64,000 nucleotides of DNA, taken from the NCBI GenBank assembly GCA_003229305.1, contig QIDH01000055.1:3240-67239 (forward strand). The letters are read 5' to 3'. A model generated the notes under the pieces. That model ran no database searches. It was not told the origin of the DNA and saw only the letters and a list, made by a program, of their open reading frames with translations. The stretch comes from Acidimicrobiia bacterium. Its GTDB lineage: Bacteria; Actinomycetota; Acidimicrobiia; Spongiisociales; Spongiisociaceae. The position numbers and the translations under genes are program-made. Below are positions 36,672 through 43,720 of the stretch, piece by piece; position 1 is the stretch's first letter, and the number at the start of each line of letters is the position of its first letter.

Positions 36672-36934
36672 TTTGCAATCGTACCGACGGTCGATGTTGT
36701 CCTGTGCCTCATGCCTGCCAGGCGACCTTTTGAGAAAGTTTTTGTCGCGGTAAACCCGAATGGGTGTCAGGAGCGATATGTGGGTATGTAGTCGAGCAAT
36801 CCCCTTGCTCGGTGTTTGTGGGGGAATGGTTCGGTCCCCTGGCCGGAACCATTCAGGTCGAAATTCGTGCCGGCCGGCATTGCCTCTCGTCCGGTCGGCA
36901 CCATCGACCCACCTGACCCACGGAGGTTCCGCCT

Positions 36935-36984
36935 CCGAAACGCCGGTGTATTCCGTCCTCGGGCGGAGGACACCGGCGTTTCGG
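36935..36984 (+). terminator. Long hairpin CCGAAACGCCGGTGT-(20 nt)-ACACCGGCGTTTCGG followed by TTTTT on the + strand
   Basis: 15-bp perfect stem with a T5 tract only in the + orientation. It sits 37 nt downstream of the minus-strand cimA stop, so it could also act as a U-less terminator for cimA. Confidence 0.5.
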
Positions 36985-37020
36985 TTTTTCTCCTTCGTCG
37001 GAGAACGCAGCGCGGGCTGT

Positions 37021-38592
37021 CTATCTGCTTTCCGACCGGAGCAGGCCGACGACAATGCCATCGGCCAGCGCCTGCCATGACGCCTCGATGATGTTCTCGT
37101 GCACCCCGATGGTGCCCCAAGACCCGACATGGTCCGCTGTCTCGAGCAGCACACGCACTCTGGCTCCCGTCGATTCTCCAGAGTCGAGCACCCTGACTCG
37201 ATAGTCGATCAGTCTGAGGTCGGCCACTTGGGGGTACTCGATCTTCAACGCCGTTCGCAGCGCTTGATCGAGAGCATGGACCGGGCCGACGCCCTCTCCT
37301 GTGGTCACGACCCGAGTCCCGTCCACCAGCACCTTGACCGTAGCTTCCGCTACGACCTCTTCGTTCCTGCGTCGCTCGGTGTAGACCCTGAACGACTCGA
37401 GTTCGAAAAAGTCTTGCTCCCAGCCCCCTGCAGATCTGACCAGCAGTTCAAATGTGCCGTCCGCAGTCTCGAAGTGATGACCCCGGTGTTCGAGGTCTTT
37501 GATCTGTCCGATGATGACCTTGGCCTGGTCGTCGCTCAGGCTCAGGCCCAGCTCGGAGGCCTTCGATTGAACCGAGGCCTTTCCGGCCAATTCGGAAACG
37601 ACCATTCGGGTTTCGTTTCCCACCTCCTTGGGATCCTGGTGCTCATAGGCATCTCGACGTCTGGCCAATGCCGAGGTGTGGAGCCCAGCCTTGTGGGTGA
37701 ACGCAGACGTCCCGATATAGGGCCGATGGGGATCGAGGGAGATATTCACCACTTCGGCGATGTGGTGGGCGATCGGGGAGAGGCTGGCCAGCCGCTCCTC
37801 ACTGAGTACAGGGATGCCCATCTTCAGCACCAGGTCGGGCAAAATTGTCGAAAAGTCTGCGTTGCCGGTCCGCTCCCCGTATCCGTTGATGCAGCCCTGG
37901 ACCTGTTTGACGCCTAGTTCAACCGACGTGAGAGTCGAGGCTACAGCGCAACCGACATCGTTGTGGAAGTGCACCCCGATTTGCGCGTCGGGGAGAAAAT
38001 CTTGGACGGCTTGGACCGTTACCGCCACCTCTCCAGGAAGCTTGCCCCCGTTGGTATCGCAAAGAACGAGGCGCTCCGCTCCCGCTTCAAACGCGGCCTT
38101 CAGAACTCTGAGGGCGTAGGCCGGATTGGCGGTGAACCCGTCGAAGAAGTGCTCGGCGTCATAGAACACCTTCCGCCCCTTGCCCTGGAGATAGTCCACC
38201 GATTCGGCGACCATCGCCACGCCCTCGTCCAGGTCGACCCGCAGGGCCTCACGCACGTGGTAGTCCCATGCCTTGCCGACGATGCAGATGACCTCGGTCT
38301 CTGCGTCCAGCAATGCGCTGAGCTGTGCATCGTCTGCCACGTTTCCGTTTGGACGCCTTGTCGAACCGAAAGCCGTCAGGGTGGCATTCGAGAACGACAG
38401 CTCGGTTTTGGCACGCTCGAAAAACTCGTTGTCCTTCGGGTTGGCTCCCGGCCAACCGCCTTCGATGTAGCCGACTCCAAGATCGTCCAACAGTCTGGCA
38501 ACCCGTAGTTTGTCCCCGACCGTGAGGGAGATGCCCTCCTGCTGCGATCCGTCTCTCAATGTCGTGTCGTAGATCTCGAGTTCGGGTTTCAT
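37021..38592 (-). CDS. cimA: (R)-citramalate synthase / 2-isopropylmalate synthase family (CimA-type, 523 aa)
   Basis: ATG at 38592 preceded by GGAGAG. IYDTTLRDGSQQEGISLTVGDKLRVARLLDDLGVGYIEGGWPGANPKD is typical of the long CimA clade, and a C-terminal LeuA-dimer regulatory domain is present. Confidence 0.85.
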   Translation of the reverse strand: MKPELEIYDTTLRDGSQQEGISLTVGDKLRVARLLDDLGVGYIEGGWPGANPKDNEFFERAKTELSFSNATLTAFGSTRRPNGNVADDAQLSALLDAETEVICIVGKAWDYHVREALRVDLDEGVAMVAESVDYLQGKGRKVFYDAEHFFDGFTANPAYALRVLKAAFEAGAERLVLCDTNGGKLPGEVAVTVQAVQDFLPDAQIGVHFHNDVGCAVASTLTSVELGVKQVQGCINGYGERTGNADFSTILPDLVLKMGIPVLSEERLASLSPIAHHIAEVVNISLDPHRPYIGTSAFTHKAGLHTSALARRRDAYEHQDPKEVGNETRMVVSELAGKASVQSKASELGLSLSDDQAKVIIGQIKDLEHRGHHFETADGTFELLVRSAGGWEQDFFELESFRVYTERRRNEEVVAEATVKVLVDGTRVVTTGEGVGPVHALDQALRTALKIEYPQVADLRLIDYRVRVLDSGESTGARVRVLLETADHVGSWGTIGVHENIIEASWQALADGIVVGLLRSESR

Positions 38593-39902: not shown

Positions 39903-41708
39903 TCAGCGGTTTGCCTGAGCCCCTGACAGCGTGCGGTCGTCGAGTGGCTCGTCTGCCAACAGTCGAAATCTGAAGACAGTCCAGCCGTCGACCCGCATCG
40001 ACTCCACGTCGCCATTCATCAGTCTGGCGAGCTGACGGGAAACTGACAGACCGAGACCCACCGCTCCAGGGCCACGATCCGTCCCCCGCGTGAAATATGG
40101 CTCGAAGAGGCGAGCAGCTACCTGGCCAGTCACGGCCGGGCCGTTGTCTGCCACATCGATGGTGGCCGATTCCCCTTCGCTGTTCAGCCTCACTTCGATC
40201 AGCGAGCCTCCATATCGAAGGGCGTTCGAGATCAAGTTCCGAACTATCTGTCTTGCCCGCACAGGATCACAGAAAGCCTCCGTTTCCTGTCCAGAAACCG
40301 AAATCACACTTGAATCGGTCAGCGACTGTATCCGGGAAGATTTGATCACCGAGTCGATCAGAGGTCGCAGTTGGGTTTTGGTGTTGAGGATCGCCAATCC
40401 CCCGCTCTCGACGCGTGCGGAAGTCAAGAGATCTTCGACGATTTCGGTCATATCTCTGCCCTGCTCTGCGATCAACGCCAGATATTCGTGTTGTGGCGTT
40501 CGCGGGCCCTCGAGCATCGCCTCGGCGAATCCCAGAATTCCGGTCAGTGGCGTCCGCAGTTCATGGCTTACTGCTGCGATCAGAGAGTCCTTTGAGGCGA
40601 TATTCTCCTGAATCTGTTTGTGCTCGTTCTGTCGGTTCCAGAACAGACGTATCAGCTCCGCCATAGACTGGAGAGCGAGTTCGATGGCGTCGTCTATGAC
40701 GAAATCGGTCGAGCTGCTCGCAACGCCGATCGTGCCCTCCCATGCGCCTTCTAGGATGATCGGGGCCAGTAGTCCAGAGCCGAGGTTCCATTCCGCCGCT
40801 TGACTAATTTCGGGTCCTGACAGGGACCTTGCGTCGAACCTGTGAGTAAGTCCCTTGGCGAGGTCGTCGTGAGCCAGTTGGAACTTCCACCACCTCATCC
40901 CGTCCGGGGAGACGTATGGCGCCCCGATGGCATGCTCACGAATGGGAGTAGGCGGAGAAAATCCGGGCCGCGCTTTGCGGGTCAGAAAAATGGAGTCCGC
41001 GCCAGTTGCGTGCAATACATGGGAAAGAGCGCGCCCGGCCTCGTCTTCATTGATAGTTGTAAGGAAGTGCCGGCTGGCTGTATGCAGGGCAGTCTGCAAT
41101 CGAGCCCGCCTTGCGTTCGCCTCAGCCGCCTCTTGGTATTGGCGTATCAACCCGACCGTGAGCCAGGACATCAGGCCCAAGGCCACCGCGGGGATTCCGG
41201 CCCTGAGGACTACGTCCTGGGTCACGACCCCGTCTTGGACAGCGGACCAGGCCCCCCATGGCGCCATGAACGCGACGACTCCTGCGATCGTCCACGGCCA
41301 CTTGTCTCCTGCCTTGATGGCCAGAACCAGGCCGATCACGAACAAGACGATCAGTGTGATCACCGAGTCGCTCCCGCCCACCTGCATGCCTTTTAGGTTC
41401 TCCAGGACATTGAGGGTTATGACCGTCCCCGCCGTAGGGATCAGGAGCCATGTCGAGTTGGGTTTGGTGCGACAGAGTTGCCAGATCGTGATGGTCATCG
41501 TCAGGACGTATGGGATGCGGGGTTTCGTTATGAGCGAATCCCCTGTCGTCGCAGAGACCAATGCGTCCACGATGAAGACGATCGGGACCGTGAACAGCGA
41601 GGCCCTGAGAACGGCGCGATCTAGACGTTCGAGGATAGATCGGCTGACAGCCGAGGACGGATTGCTCACGACACCCCCTGAGAAGTTGACTACCCGCGCC
41701 TCGGTCAA
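39903..41708 (-). CDS. Orphan sensor histidine kinase (multi-TM N-terminus, GAF-like, HisKA, HATPase_c)
   Basis: H-box AAVSHELRTPLTGILGF, N-box IVRNLISNALRYG, G-boxes DNGPAV and GLGLSV. 601 aa. Confidence 0.9.
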   Translation of the reverse strand: MTEARVVNFSGGVVSNPSSAVSRSILERLDRAVLRASLFTVPIVFIVDALVSATTGDSLITKPRIPYVLTMTITIWQLCRTKPNSTWLLIPTAGTVITLNVLENLKGMQVGGSDSVITLIVLFVIGLVLAIKAGDKWPWTIAGVVAFMAPWGAWSAVQDGVVTQDVVLRAGIPAVALGLMSWLTVGLIRQYQEAAEANARRARLQTALHTASRHFLTTINEDEAGRALSHVLHATGADSIFLTRKARPGFSPPTPIREHAIGAPYVSPDGMRWWKFQLAHDDLAKGLTHRFDARSLSGPEISQAAEWNLGSGLLAPIILEGAWEGTIGVASSSTDFVIDDAIELALQSMAELIRLFWNRQNEHKQIQENIASKDSLIAAVSHELRTPLTGILGFAEAMLEGPRTPQHEYLALIAEQGRDMTEIVEDLLTSARVESGGLAILNTKTQLRPLIDSVIKSSRIQSLTDSSVISVSGQETEAFCDPVRARQIVRNLISNALRYGGSLIEVRLNSEGESATIDVADNGPAVTGQVAARLFEPYFTRGTDRGPGAVGLGLSVSRQLARLMNGDVESMRVDGWTVFRFRLLADEPLDDRTLSGAQANR

Positions 41709-41737
41709 GTATTTGGCTCACAGTATCGCCGCCCCGC

Positions 41738-41860
41738 ATGGATTGCGCGGTATCTGCGAGGTGTTGGCCACGGCCCGGCCAGTCACCTGTGATAGTCTCG
41801 CGAGCGATGATTGCGAGGGCTCGTTTGCCCGTCTCCTGGTGGCAAGCCCACTTTTCATAG
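41738..41860 (+). CDS. Candidate trpS leader peptide ending ...LPVSWWQAHFS* (40 aa from ATG 41738, or 17 aa from ATG 41807)
   Basis: Small ORF in the 229-nt trpS upstream region with tandem TGG TGG codons at 41837-41842, five codons before its stop. Confidence 0.55.
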   Translation: MDCAVSARCWPRPGQSPVIVSRAMIARARLPVSWWQAHFS

Positions 41861-41880
41861 CCGCGCGCCAACCTTGTCAG

Positions 41881-41905
41881 ACGCCGGCGCAAGTCGGCGT
41901 TTTTC
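41881..41905 (+). terminator. Intrinsic terminator in the trpS leader (ACGCCG-GCGCAAGU-CGGCGU-UUUUU)
   Basis: 6-bp GC stem plus a T5 tract, 33 nt upstream of the trpS ATG. An alternative outer pairing CAGACGC/GCGTCTG (41878-41912) overlaps it. Confidence 0.65.
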
Positions 41906-41937
41906 GCGTCTGCAACCGATTTCCTAGGAGACAGACC

Positions 41938-42915
41938 ATGACCGAAAACCGACTCTTCTCAGGCATCCAGCCAACGGGCGAGATCCACCTCGGCAACTAC
42001 ATCGGAGCGCTTCGCAACTGGGTCTCGATGCAGGAGGAGTATGAAGCCATCTACTGCGTCGTCGATCTGCACGCGTTGACGGCCCCCCAAGGACCTGCCG
42101 AGCTTCGGGAAGCGACCATCCGCACTGCCAAGGCGCTCCTGGCAGTCGGTATCGACCCGGATCGGTCGCTGCTCTACGTCCAGAGCCACGTCCCTCAACA
42201 TGCAGAGTTGGCCTGGATTCTCGGGACTCTTGCCTCGATGGGTCATCTGAGCCGGATGATCCAGTACAAAGAGAAATCTGAAAAGGGCGGCCAGAACCTA
42301 GGCCTGTTCGCCTACCCGGTGCTCCAGGCGGCCGACATCCTCATTCATCGTGTGCACGTCGTTCCGGTCGGAGATGATCAATCCCAGCACCTCGAATTGA
42401 CCCGCGAGTTGGCAGAGCGCTTCAACACTCGGTTCGGAGAGATTTTCCCCGTGCCGGCGACGATCACCCCGAAAATCGGGGCGAGAGTGATGTCTCTCAA
42501 GGATCCGACGGCCAAAATGTCGAAGTCGGATCCTGACCCCAAGAGCCGGATCGATATCACCGATTCGGCGGACCTGATACGAAAGAAGATCAGATCGGCG
42601 GTCACTGACTCCGGGATCGGAGTGCGATACGACACCGAAGACAAGCCGGGGATCTCGAATCTGTTGGACATCACGGCTGCGATGTCTGGACGAGCGATCG
42701 ATGAGCTTGTCGCCGAGTACGCCGACCTGCAGTACGGATCGTTCAAAGATGCCGTAGCTGACGCCGTCATAGACGGGCTGGAGCCGTTCCGTTCGGCGTA
42801 TTCTGCGATGACCGACGACTATGTGCGCGACGTAATGGCCTCGAGCGCAGAGCGGGCCATCGACTCCGCCGCCGCCAGTTTGGCTGGGATCCGCGAGGCA
42901 GTCGGCCTCAGCTGA
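41938..42915 (+). CDS. trpS: Tryptophan--tRNA ligase
   Basis: GIQPTGEIHLGNYIGA (HIGH-type) and KMSKS motifs. 325 aa. ATG preceded by AGGAGA. Confidence 0.95.
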   Translation: MTENRLFSGIQPTGEIHLGNYIGALRNWVSMQEEYEAIYCVVDLHALTAPQGPAELREATIRTAKALLAVGIDPDRSLLYVQSHVPQHAELAWILGTLASMGHLSRMIQYKEKSEKGGQNLGLFAYPVLQAADILIHRVHVVPVGDDQSQHLELTRELAERFNTRFGEIFPVPATITPKIGARVMSLKDPTAKMSKSDPDPKSRIDITDSADLIRKKIRSAVTDSGIGVRYDTEDKPGISNLLDITAAMSGRAIDELVAEYADLQYGSFKDAVADAVIDGLEPFRSAYSAMTDDYVRDVMASSAERAIDSAAASLAGIREAVGLS

Positions 42916-43720
42916 TCAGGTCCACTTCGGATGCAAAAAGAAGCGCCATCACCTGGATGAGGTTGAAACTGCTGTGGAGCAAGATCGGCGCAGACAGCGA
43001 TTTGGTCTTCAGTCTGACAAGGGCCAGGACCAACCCCACTCCGAACAGGACGATCAGGGGAGGGATGACGAGCCGGACCGCCTCTACAGCTCCGCCCTCG
43101 ACGGATGGGTTGAACCCGAGGAGGTGGGGGAGTGAAAAAGCGACCGAAGAGGCGACGACCGCCACAGTGGTGGAATTTCGCTGAAGGATCGTGTCGTACA
43201 GGAGGCCCCTGAACAGCAGCTCCTCGATGATCGGCCCGAATATCCCGATGCCTGCCACGATCGCGAACGCGGTGATACCTGCCCCCGATCCTGCCACCAT
43301 GTCCACGAGTGCCTGAGCGTTTTCGTCTCCCGCTCCGAACAACGGTTTCAGGACGAGAGTGAGGCCCGCGGACCCGGCCACGAGCGGTGCGCCGGCCAAG
43401 ACCCACGGCCAATCCCTTGGGTTCACTTCGAATGAGAAATCGCCGGCGAAGTTGCCGGTTCCATGTCGGTGACTGAGCCAACGCAGGACCAGGAAGTTGG
43501 CGAGGAGTTGGACCGGCAACAAGAACCAGAAGGTCCATTCGTTCGAGATCTCGACATTCACGCTCCCGGATTCGGCGTCGAGGCTCGCCCCGCCGACGAT
43601 GATGAGCACCAAGACTGACGCCACCAGACTGGCGCCGACGCCTGCCCCGAACACTGCAAGGCTGTGCCAATATCGCCACTCCGGCCTGGCAGCGCTGCCT
43701 TCGATATCTACCCGATCCAT
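42908..43720 (-). CDS. CPBP family intramembrane glutamic endopeptidase (CAAX protease/Abi-like)
   Basis: EELLFRGLLY motif 1 and FSLPHL / HSSFN motifs. Polytopic, 270 aa. Confidence 0.85.
   Translation of the reverse strand: MDRVDIEGSAARPEWRYWHSLAVFGAGVGASLVASVLVLIIVGGASLDAESGSVNVEISNEWTFWFLLPVQLLANFLVLRWLSHRHGTGNFAGDFSFEVNPRDWPWVLAGAPLVAGSAGLTLVLKPLFGAGDENAQALVDMVAGSGAGITAFAIVAGIGIFGPIIEELLFRGLLYDTILQRNSTTVAVVASSVAFSLPHLLGFNPSVEGGAVEAVRLVIPPLIVLFGVGLVLALVRLKTKSLSAPILLHSSFNLIQVMALLFASEVDLIS

Follow-up and report, generated by a model that had tools for sequence, protein, structure and literature searches.

A probable tryptophan-sensing leader-peptide attenuator upstream of trpS in an Acidimicrobiia genome, with related leaders across the class

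In a 64-kb stretch of an Acidimicrobiia genome (64,000 nucleotides of contig QIDH01000055.1, hereafter the window, in whose numbering all coordinates are given), the region upstream of trpS, the gene for tryptophan--tRNA ligase, carries a compact RNA element that probably is, or descends from, a Trp-sensing leader-peptide attenuator. A first-pass annotation made from the DNA letters alone had proposed such an attenuator, and our analysis supports this interpretation, chiefly by comparative evidence. A short open reading frame (ORF) with tandem Trp codons, a GC-rich box and an intrinsic terminator follow one another in the geometry of a classical attenuator, the terminator is stable, and the same arrangement is conserved upstream of trpS across Acidimicrobiia. 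The element lies in the intergenic gap 41709-41937 (229 nt), between a divergent histidine kinase ORF and trpS, and consists of the following parts.

41790-41798, + strand: extended -10 element TGaTAGTCT (TAGTCT at 41793-98), 8 nt before ATG 41807
41807-41860, + strand: leader peptide ORF (trpL-like) of 17 codons, MIARARLPVSWWQAHFS then TAG, starting at -131 from trpS
41837-41842, + strand: tandem Trp codons UGG UGG, where the ribosome is proposed to stall; the 13 aligned seed leaders described below all have TGGTGG unchanged
41860-41868, + strand: region 2, the GC box GCCGCGCGC, predicted 5′ arm of the antiterminator, beginning at the last base (G) of the stop codon
41879-41904, + strand: intrinsic terminator, with 5′ arm at 41879-88 (region 3), GCAA loop at 41889-92, 3′ arm at 41893-41902 (region 4) and U5 at 41900-04
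41923-41940, + strand: trpS ribosome-binding region and start, with AGGAG at 41926-30, 7 nt ahead of ATG 41938
41938-42915, + strand: trpS, tryptophan--tRNA ligase of 325 aa (TIGR00233, 336 bits, cut-off 177)

The small ORF upstream of trpS, the two consecutive TGG codons at 41837-41842, five codons (QAHFS) ahead of the TAG stop (41858-60), and the Shine-Dalgarno (SD) sequence and ATG 41938 of trpS were all found where the first-pass annotation had placed them. The window thus holds the regulatory codons of a classical attenuator, in the form of a short ORF with consecutive Trp codons near its stop. Two in-frame starts had been offered, ATG 41738, which gives a 40-aa ORF, and ATG 41807, which gives MIARARLPVSWWQAHFS. 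The 17-aa reading from ATG 41807 is the relevant one because ATG 41738 lies upstream of the promoter box: TAGTCT is the sole plus-strand TAnnnT within 41650-41940. The 40-aa ORF was rejected as the leader on these grounds and because the corresponding peptides in relatives have only 9-14 aa and it has no Pfam match; nor did overlapping ORFs on either strand have one. The spacing between TAnnnT and the start codon is the signature of leaderless or near-leaderless transcripts in actinobacteria, as in Streptomyces leader peptides (PMC8079986), and the position of the -10 box here implies a predicted transcript that is leaderless or nearly so. No plus-strand TAnnnT was found between the terminator and the trpS ATG, and trpS therefore appears to depend on read-through from the leader.

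The core terminator hairpin pairs ACGCCG (41881-86) with CGGCG (41895-99), followed by TTTTT (41900-04), and ViennaRNA lengthens it to 10 pairs, AGACGCCGGC-GCAA-GUCGGCGUUU (41879-41902). Its folding energy is -16.4 to -16.9 kcal/mol, with z scores of -3.3 to -4.8 against dinucleotide shuffles, one of 200 of which was as stable; its sequence occurs once in the window, and its U run ends 33 nt ahead of trpS. An intrinsic terminator (41879-41904) thus stands between the leader ORF and the gene that it would regulate. The earlier description of this hairpin as ACGCCG-loop-CGGCGU-U5 was right about its presence after the stop and wrong about the U residues, of which there are five in all, one having been counted twice.

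Region 2 pairs with 41880-88 through eight G-C pairs, one bulge and one single-base gap (-10.7 kcal/mol in a fold of 41855-41892), so that the 3′ arm of the predicted antiterminator lies wholly within the terminator's 5′ arm (41879-88) and covers 8 of its 10 bases. Parts of the box recur in Acidimicrobiia relatives listed below: CCGCGCGCC is common to L001, at the same position after the stop, and GCGCGCC is common to L016, L018 and L103. The last Trp codon lies 20 nt from region 2 in the window, versus 15-18 nt in relatives, and the stop codon abuts region 2, such that a ribosome at UAG would cover it. This spacing fits the logic of ribosome footprints, whose size, on which the masking argument draws, is general knowledge.

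From these elements we infer a transcription start, translation of the leader, stalling and a switch that would together make up a classical ribosome-mediated transcription attenuator, with trpS expression following charged tRNA-Trp. Transcription would start ~7 nt past TGaTAGTCT, at or beside ATG 41807, and ribosomes would read the 17-codon leader from a leaderless mRNA. With ample Trp-tRNA, the ribosome would reach UAG 41858 and cover region 2 (41860-68), region 3 (41879-88) would be free to pair with region 4 (41893-41902), and the polymerase would terminate at the U run, which ends 33 nt short of trpS. With too little Trp-tRNA, the ribosome would stall with UGG 41837 or 41840 in its A site and its 3′ edge ~5-8 nt short of region 2; region 2 would capture region 3 once it is made, the terminator would be blocked, and the polymerase would read into trpS.

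The evidence that carries most of this argument comes from relatives. We gathered trpS loci by a TrpS search of GTDB species genomes and metagenomes, the best matches being metagenome-assembled genomes of Acidimicrobiia, and compared Acidimicrobiia loci whose TrpS is 55-69% identical to the window's (64-69% for the nearest). Reading 300 nt upstream of trpS, we found in 17 distinct loci a mini-ORF of 9-14 aa with 2-4 consecutive Trp codons; the Trp run sits 2-4 codons before the stop and the mini-ORF starts at -106 to -149 from trpS. After the stop come a GC box, which has two possible partners, the Trp codons and the terminator's 5′ arm, and then the terminator itself. The comparison that the first-pass annotation had called for, a look for the Trp-Trp mini-ORF in relatives, therefore came out in its favor, with tandem Trp codons and terminator recurring at matching spacing in all 17. 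The leader peptides, by locus, are as follows.

L001: MNDVTLRSWWWTTD
L004: MKNAHGTWWTTP
L007: MSVRRMSWWWPTD
L008: MSAWWRPPL
L016: (M)MELVGSWWWRQR
L018: MRTGRSWWWSRES
L023: MSTCWWWWSHDK
L028: MQIMRSWWCRRR
L086: MIVLDRLSWWWPQF
L087: MMVNVRSGWWFSI
L091: MTVYAPRWWCHSE
L093: MRGLVSLAWWWHF
L096 and L098: MAEPRWWSGTE
L101: MNRWWWPGER
L103: MKSTHSWWRRKG
L109: MKVHRASWWWPTD

Further loci have variants of this leader.

L082: MKTHGNLWRWTST
L009 and L011: MSAARWSG.EE, with a single W
L012 and L013: MLRVSVKPRWSA, with a single W
L099 (1489-1572): CGT CGG CGG CGT (RRRR) where relatives have UGG UGG UGG, with no stop before the terminator and a match of 32 bits to the family model

The last of these resembles a Trp leader in decay, every UGG having turned into CGG or CGU. 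The promoter box is shared as well: each of the 18 leaders, the window's included, has a single TAnnnT within the 45 nt upstream, at 6-9 nt from the start codon in 17 and at 12 nt in one relative. In these loci TAnnnT has a background frequency of 0.0012 per position, from which a placement at 6-9 nt is expected in ~0.5% of cases.

In a neighbor-joining tree of TrpS, leader-bearing loci occur all over the Acidimicrobiia clade, interspersed with leader-less lineages, and the sister group of the window's TrpS includes L001 (WWW) together with the leader-less L002, L003, L005, L006 and L081. Some leader-less loci, L022 among them, have kept the -10 box and lost the mini-ORF. The scatter over the tree and remnants of this kind fit a trpS leader that would be an ancestral element with repeated losses.

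The combination of signals is specific. We wrote it as a simple grammar (TAnnnT, 6-9 nt, ATG or GTG, and an ORF of at most 20 aa containing WW), which gave 18 matches on both strands of 0.80 Mb of sequence made up of Acidimicrobiia-type loci and the window; all 18 lie directly upstream of trpS and on its strand, and the window's ATG 41807 is one of them. There were no matches in a further 1.09 Mb of other loci, for a total of 1.9 Mb searched. A broader grammar (-10 box, any ORF of 5-30 aa, and at most 90 nt to a hairpin of -12 kcal/mol or lower before a T run) found one site on the two strands of the window, and it is this leader.

Covariance models gave a similar picture. Two were built with the window excluded, R1 from 13 relatives and R2 from 19, and the best match of both in the 64 kb is 41831-41907 on the + strand, at 19.5 bits and E 0.01 for R1 and 17.6 bits and E 0.03 for R2 (128 kb, both strands); for R1 on the 229-nt gap alone, E is 3.6e-5. 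Weak matches of 12.6-16 bits also occur on both strands at 36915-37044, where a hairpin ACGCCGGTGTCCTC...CCGGCGTTT has the CGCCGG/CCGGCG terminator stem typical of the clade and stands without a Trp mini-ORF; it is probably an ordinary terminator.

These searches bear on whether the arrangement is a coincidence, a random short ORF with WW placed by accident beside a GC hairpin to which it has no functional link, in a region of divergent promoters. DNA of 61% GC is rich in short ORFs and GC helices, the alternative helices of the window do not exceed those of shuffled sequences, and, with no promoter condition, these genomes contain ~0.04-0.07 WW mini-ORFs (at most 20 aa) per kb per strand, or a chance of ~1-1.5% per 229-nt gap. 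Against this, 17 relatives have the composite at the corresponding position, the window has it once, and the rest of the 1.9 Mb has no copy; models built without the window match precisely 41831-41907; and the terminator is 3.3 to 4.8 standard units below its shuffles. We therefore regard chance co-occurrence as highly improbable.

The relatives also show what the alternative structures of the family look like. In most of their full-length folds, UGGUGG(UGG) pairs with a GGCCGCCGC box (consensus GGCCnCCGCG) after the stop to form helix 1:2, in most cases through pairing of UGGUGGUGG with GCCGCCGC. The terminator, helix 3:4, was found in all of them and has the form CGCCGGnGGCC...CCGGCG followed by a U run. 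To represent a stalled ribosome, we folded the RNA from 12 nt past the last Trp codon to the terminator loop, leaving out region 4; in these folds the GC box pairs with the terminator's 5′ arm (helix 2:3) at -10.7 to -22 kcal/mol, while the terminators themselves reach -14 to -22.5 kcal/mol (L001 is excepted from the 2:3 result, its terminator having been mis-assigned in that run). Family mean z scores against dinucleotide shuffles are -1.7 for 1:2, -1.1 for 2:3 and -3.6 for 3:4.

An alignment of 13 sequences with a hand-specified structure, used together with per-sequence folding, has pairs formed in 83% of cells for 1:2 and 3:4 and in 77.5% for 2:3, versus 32-58% when the partner is slid by 1-3 columns. 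This slid-partner control is the sole informative part of the covariation counts, which weigh little either way because the helices are nearly invariant in sequence. The arrangement replaced an RNAalifold run on a crude 18-sequence MAFFT alignment, which was discarded: it recovered only a 5-bp helix between Trp codons and terminator arm, and the terminator was misregistered. Conserved Trp codons with covarying stems had been named as a test of the attenuator; the codons are indeed kept, and the stems, being nearly invariant, provide little covariation.

Several other helices are possible in the window.

41838-41873, + strand: weak 1:2 helix, GGUGGC (41838-43) with GCC/ACC (41867-69, 41871-73)
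41906-41912, + strand: GCGUCUG, 3′ arm of a helix with CAGACGC (41878-84), a perfect 7-nt inverted repeat
41831-41839, + strand: GUCUCCUGG, anti-SD-like, overlapping the first Trp codon and complementary to CCUAGGAGAC (41923-32) in the trpS ribosome-binding region

The second of these had been put forward as the overlapping alternative to the terminator. The perfect repeat is present, and in the read-through RNA the structure forced to contain it (-16.2 kcal/mol, versus -17.7 for the minimum-free-energy (MFE) structure) comes close to the terminator in energy. The 3′ arm of the repeat is transcribed only after the U run, however, so the helix cannot decide termination, and it was rejected as antiterminator; the actual candidate for that role is region 2 with 41880-88.

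The third helix raises the question of whether control might be chiefly translational, with GUCUCCUGG sequestering the trpS SD region and a ribosome on the Trp codons unmasking it. The 9-bp GUCUCCUGG/CCUAGGAGAC helix does appear in the MFE folds of both the 116-nt and the 237-nt leader, and its -16.0 kcal/mol falls at the 5th percentile when compared with random 18-mers. Conservation is lacking, however: the equivalent test in the 17 relatives gave a uniform spread of percentiles, and we therefore rejected the idea that Trp-codon segments sequester the SD throughout the family. In addition, a stable, conserved terminator with a U run stands between the two arms, and a ribosome on the leader and the distant SD would need to be coupled on one transcript. 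Taken together, these points make a chiefly translational mechanism very unlikely; the anti-SD helix may be a private second layer of control or may be due to chance.

A T-box, a riboswitch or a protein-mediated (TRAP-like) leader in place of a ribosome-sensed one is an extremely improbable explanation. Some RNA element is clearly present, and trpS is under T-box control in Bacillus. Nonetheless, Rfam 15 gave no match at gathering thresholds anywhere in the window, a permissive scan of 41600-42050 returned chance-level matches only (E of at least 1.7) and no T-box (RF00230), and the ~100 nt from leader start to terminator are too few for a T-box. These scans of window and gap bear out the earlier statement that this trpS lacks a T-box. 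The Rfam Trp_leader family (RF00513) likewise gave no match at its gathering threshold or at E up to 10. No family reached threshold in 20 Acidimicrobiia trpS loci; since even clear leader carriers among them give no match, the element is not covered by Rfam. As a positive control, the scan detects T-boxes in two Anaerosphaera loci (L051:4041-4231 and L061:4041-4231, 108-114 bits). Those T-boxes follow trpS closely and precede the next gene; upstream of trpS itself, the scan of ten loci from outside Acidimicrobiia, mostly from Firmicutes, found no T-box.

Several observations weigh against the attenuator interpretation. The window's own 2:3 helix has a z score of -0.6, no better than shuffled GC-rich sequence, and its 1:2 helix, at -9.5 kcal/mol, has a z score of about 0. 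In the family as a whole, only 1-2 compensatory pairs were found, the 2:3 helix is not above shuffles, and support from true covariation is weak. The window's model scores are low relative to the 58-77 bits of core members, and the broader model R2 gave it no higher score than R1. Among the nearest relatives, L002, L003, L005, L006 and L081 are without the leader. No relative with TrpS more than 69% identical to the window's came from the genome and metagenome scans, both of which peaked at 66-69%, so the comparison is at the level of the class rather than the species. Finally, a terminator and promoter scan of 41400-42300 called nothing, the U run being just 5 nt long. That scan required a -35 box and, past the maximal stem, a run of at least 5 T; it missed the terminator because the extended stem takes three of the five U, and it was superseded by folding with shuffles.

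Some of these observations would be explained if the leader were a relic, descended from the Acidimicrobiia trpS leader with Trp sensing lost, such that the hairpin dampens trpS constitutively or does nothing. The chance-level 1:2 and 2:3 helices and the model scores of 17.6-19.5 bits agree with this, as does the fact that decay and loss are common in the family (RRRR for WWW in L099, a -10 box without a mini-ORF in L022, and leader-less clades). On the other hand, the ORF is intact, its in-frame WW has proper spacing to the stop and to region 2, the -10 box is intact, and the antiterminator retains eight G-C pairs over 8 of the 10 bases of the terminator's 5′ arm. L001 and L004, which were not in the seed, score as low as the window (24.3 and 18.3 bits), yet their leaders are plainly of the WWW and WW kind. 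The trp attenuator of E. coli, too, has a 2:3 helix that is weaker than 3:4. We consider a relic unlikely, and favor a leader that retains Trp sensing. In either case, the window's low score and its shuffle-level 2:3 and 1:2 helices mark its copy as a diverged rather than a core member of the Acidimicrobiia trpS leader family.

The genes on either side of the element add some context.

39903-41708, - strand: sensor histidine kinase ORF, divergent from trpS, whose longest form opens at TTG 41708
41720-41725, - strand: TACTGT, a putative -10-like box for the histidine kinase, the sole minus-strand TAnnnT in 41650-41940, 11 nt before TTG 41708

TACTGT and the -10 box of the trpS leader suggest back-to-back divergent promoters ~68 nt apart. 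The real start of the kinase may be further in, for example at a GTG at codon 14 with AGGGGG ahead of it. On the other side, a convergent ORF for a CPBP-family intramembrane protease (42908-43720, - strand) overlaps the 3′ end of trpS by 8 nt (42908-42915), and trpS therefore appears to be monocistronic.

In seven relatives (L016:1700-1950, L018, L006, L027, L031, L002 and L003) the gene divergent from trpS is instead a cimA/leuA-like synthase (N-terminus ..EIYDTTLRDG..). It is preceded on its own strand by a leaderless-type mini-ORF that ends in a run of Ile codons (~60-420 nt upstream of trpS, on the minus strand), with the peptides MRTTPSTIIIIA, MAHLATTIIIT, MTSVTGIIIG, MTSPTTTIIIT, MQEIASRSIIIDP, MNIHTGIIID and MSIHTGIIID, followed by GC-rich inverted repeats, the last one ahead of a U-rich run. 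This looks like an Ile-responsive attenuator. The arrangement is absent from the window, whose divergent gene is the histidine kinase.

Leader-peptide control of a trpS gene has precedents in Streptomyces. Judging from the title of their 2010 paper, Vecchione and Sello reportedly described ribosome-mediated attenuation of the auxiliary trpRS1 of S. coelicolor. A leader-peptide attenuator has been noted for trpS2 of S. avermitilis in a study that also pointed out GGCC-type complementary triples (Seliverstov 2005, PMC1262725), and in S. lividans a leaderless trpL2 (MMTRTCTQLWRAA) lies upstream of trpS and trpL1 (MFAHSTRNWWWTAHPAAH) upstream of trpE (Droste 2021, PMC8079986). Compared by arrangement rather than by sequence, these actinobacterial trpS attenuators resemble the one proposed for the window: a short leaderless ORF with one or more Trp codons, followed by hairpins, lies directly upstream of a monocistronic trpS, and a synthetase gene is attenuated by its own amino acid. 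They differ in that Streptomyces belongs to the Actinomycetes and the window to Acidimicrobiia, in that TrpL2 of S. lividans contains a single W and lacks a U-rich tract, where the window has WW and U5, and in that the regulated Streptomyces gene is described as an auxiliary, antibiotic-resistant paralogue.

The attenuators of trp operons in Streptomyces and Corynebacterium (for example S. lividans TrpL1, MFAHSTRNWWWTAHPAAH) are also actinobacterial and leaderless, with a WWW run and GC-rich terminator and antiterminator helices whose GGCC/GCC-type triples resemble the GGCCGCCGC and CGCCGGnGGCC boxes of the Acidimicrobiia leaders, but they precede trpE or a trp operon rather than trpS. E. coli trpL (RF00513), whose leader peptide carries its tandem Trp near the stop, shares with the window the Trp codons a few codons before the stop, the intrinsic terminator and, as proposed here, the 1:2/2:3/3:4 logic; unlike the window's element it controls biosynthetic genes and has an SD-dependent leader, and there is no sequence similarity between the two. 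The T-box of Firmicutes trpS (RF00230), like the proposed element, senses the charging of tRNA-Trp and chooses between termination and read-through, but it binds the tRNA directly, without a ribosome or a leader ORF. In the E. coli pheST operon, with its pheM leader, a synthetase operon is similarly placed under a leader peptide rich in the cognate amino acid (PMC1262725), although the amino acid and the phylum are different and the leader is SD-dependent.

A full-text literature search found no description of such leaders in Acidimicrobiia. The strongest form of our interpretation would be that of a class-wide, ancestral Acidimicrobiia RNA family, outside Rfam and undescribed in the searchable literature, which controls the housekeeping and possibly only trpS, and to which the window adds an anti-SD layer such that one stalled ribosome would both block termination and unmask trpS translation; taken as a whole, we regard this as doubtful.

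The kind of control proposed here is already known from trpS of Streptomyces; what is new is the class in which this member is found, and a conserved family stands behind it. Our understanding of attenuation itself is unchanged, and no new principle is involved. The finding carries leader-peptide attenuation of trpS beyond Streptomyces into a second class of actinobacteria, one that is poorly studied and for the most part uncultured; the leader is probably old there, because it is scattered over the whole TrpS tree and was lost several times. Its signature (TAnnnT, 6-9 nt, a short WW ORF, a GC box and a terminator) is compact and highly specific, and the seed alignment could become an Rfam family, which would improve the annotation of metagenome-assembled genomes. 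The natural variants, with W1, WRW, WW, WWW and WWWW along with decayed copies, could serve to examine how an attenuator on a leaderless mRNA is tuned by its number of regulatory codons.

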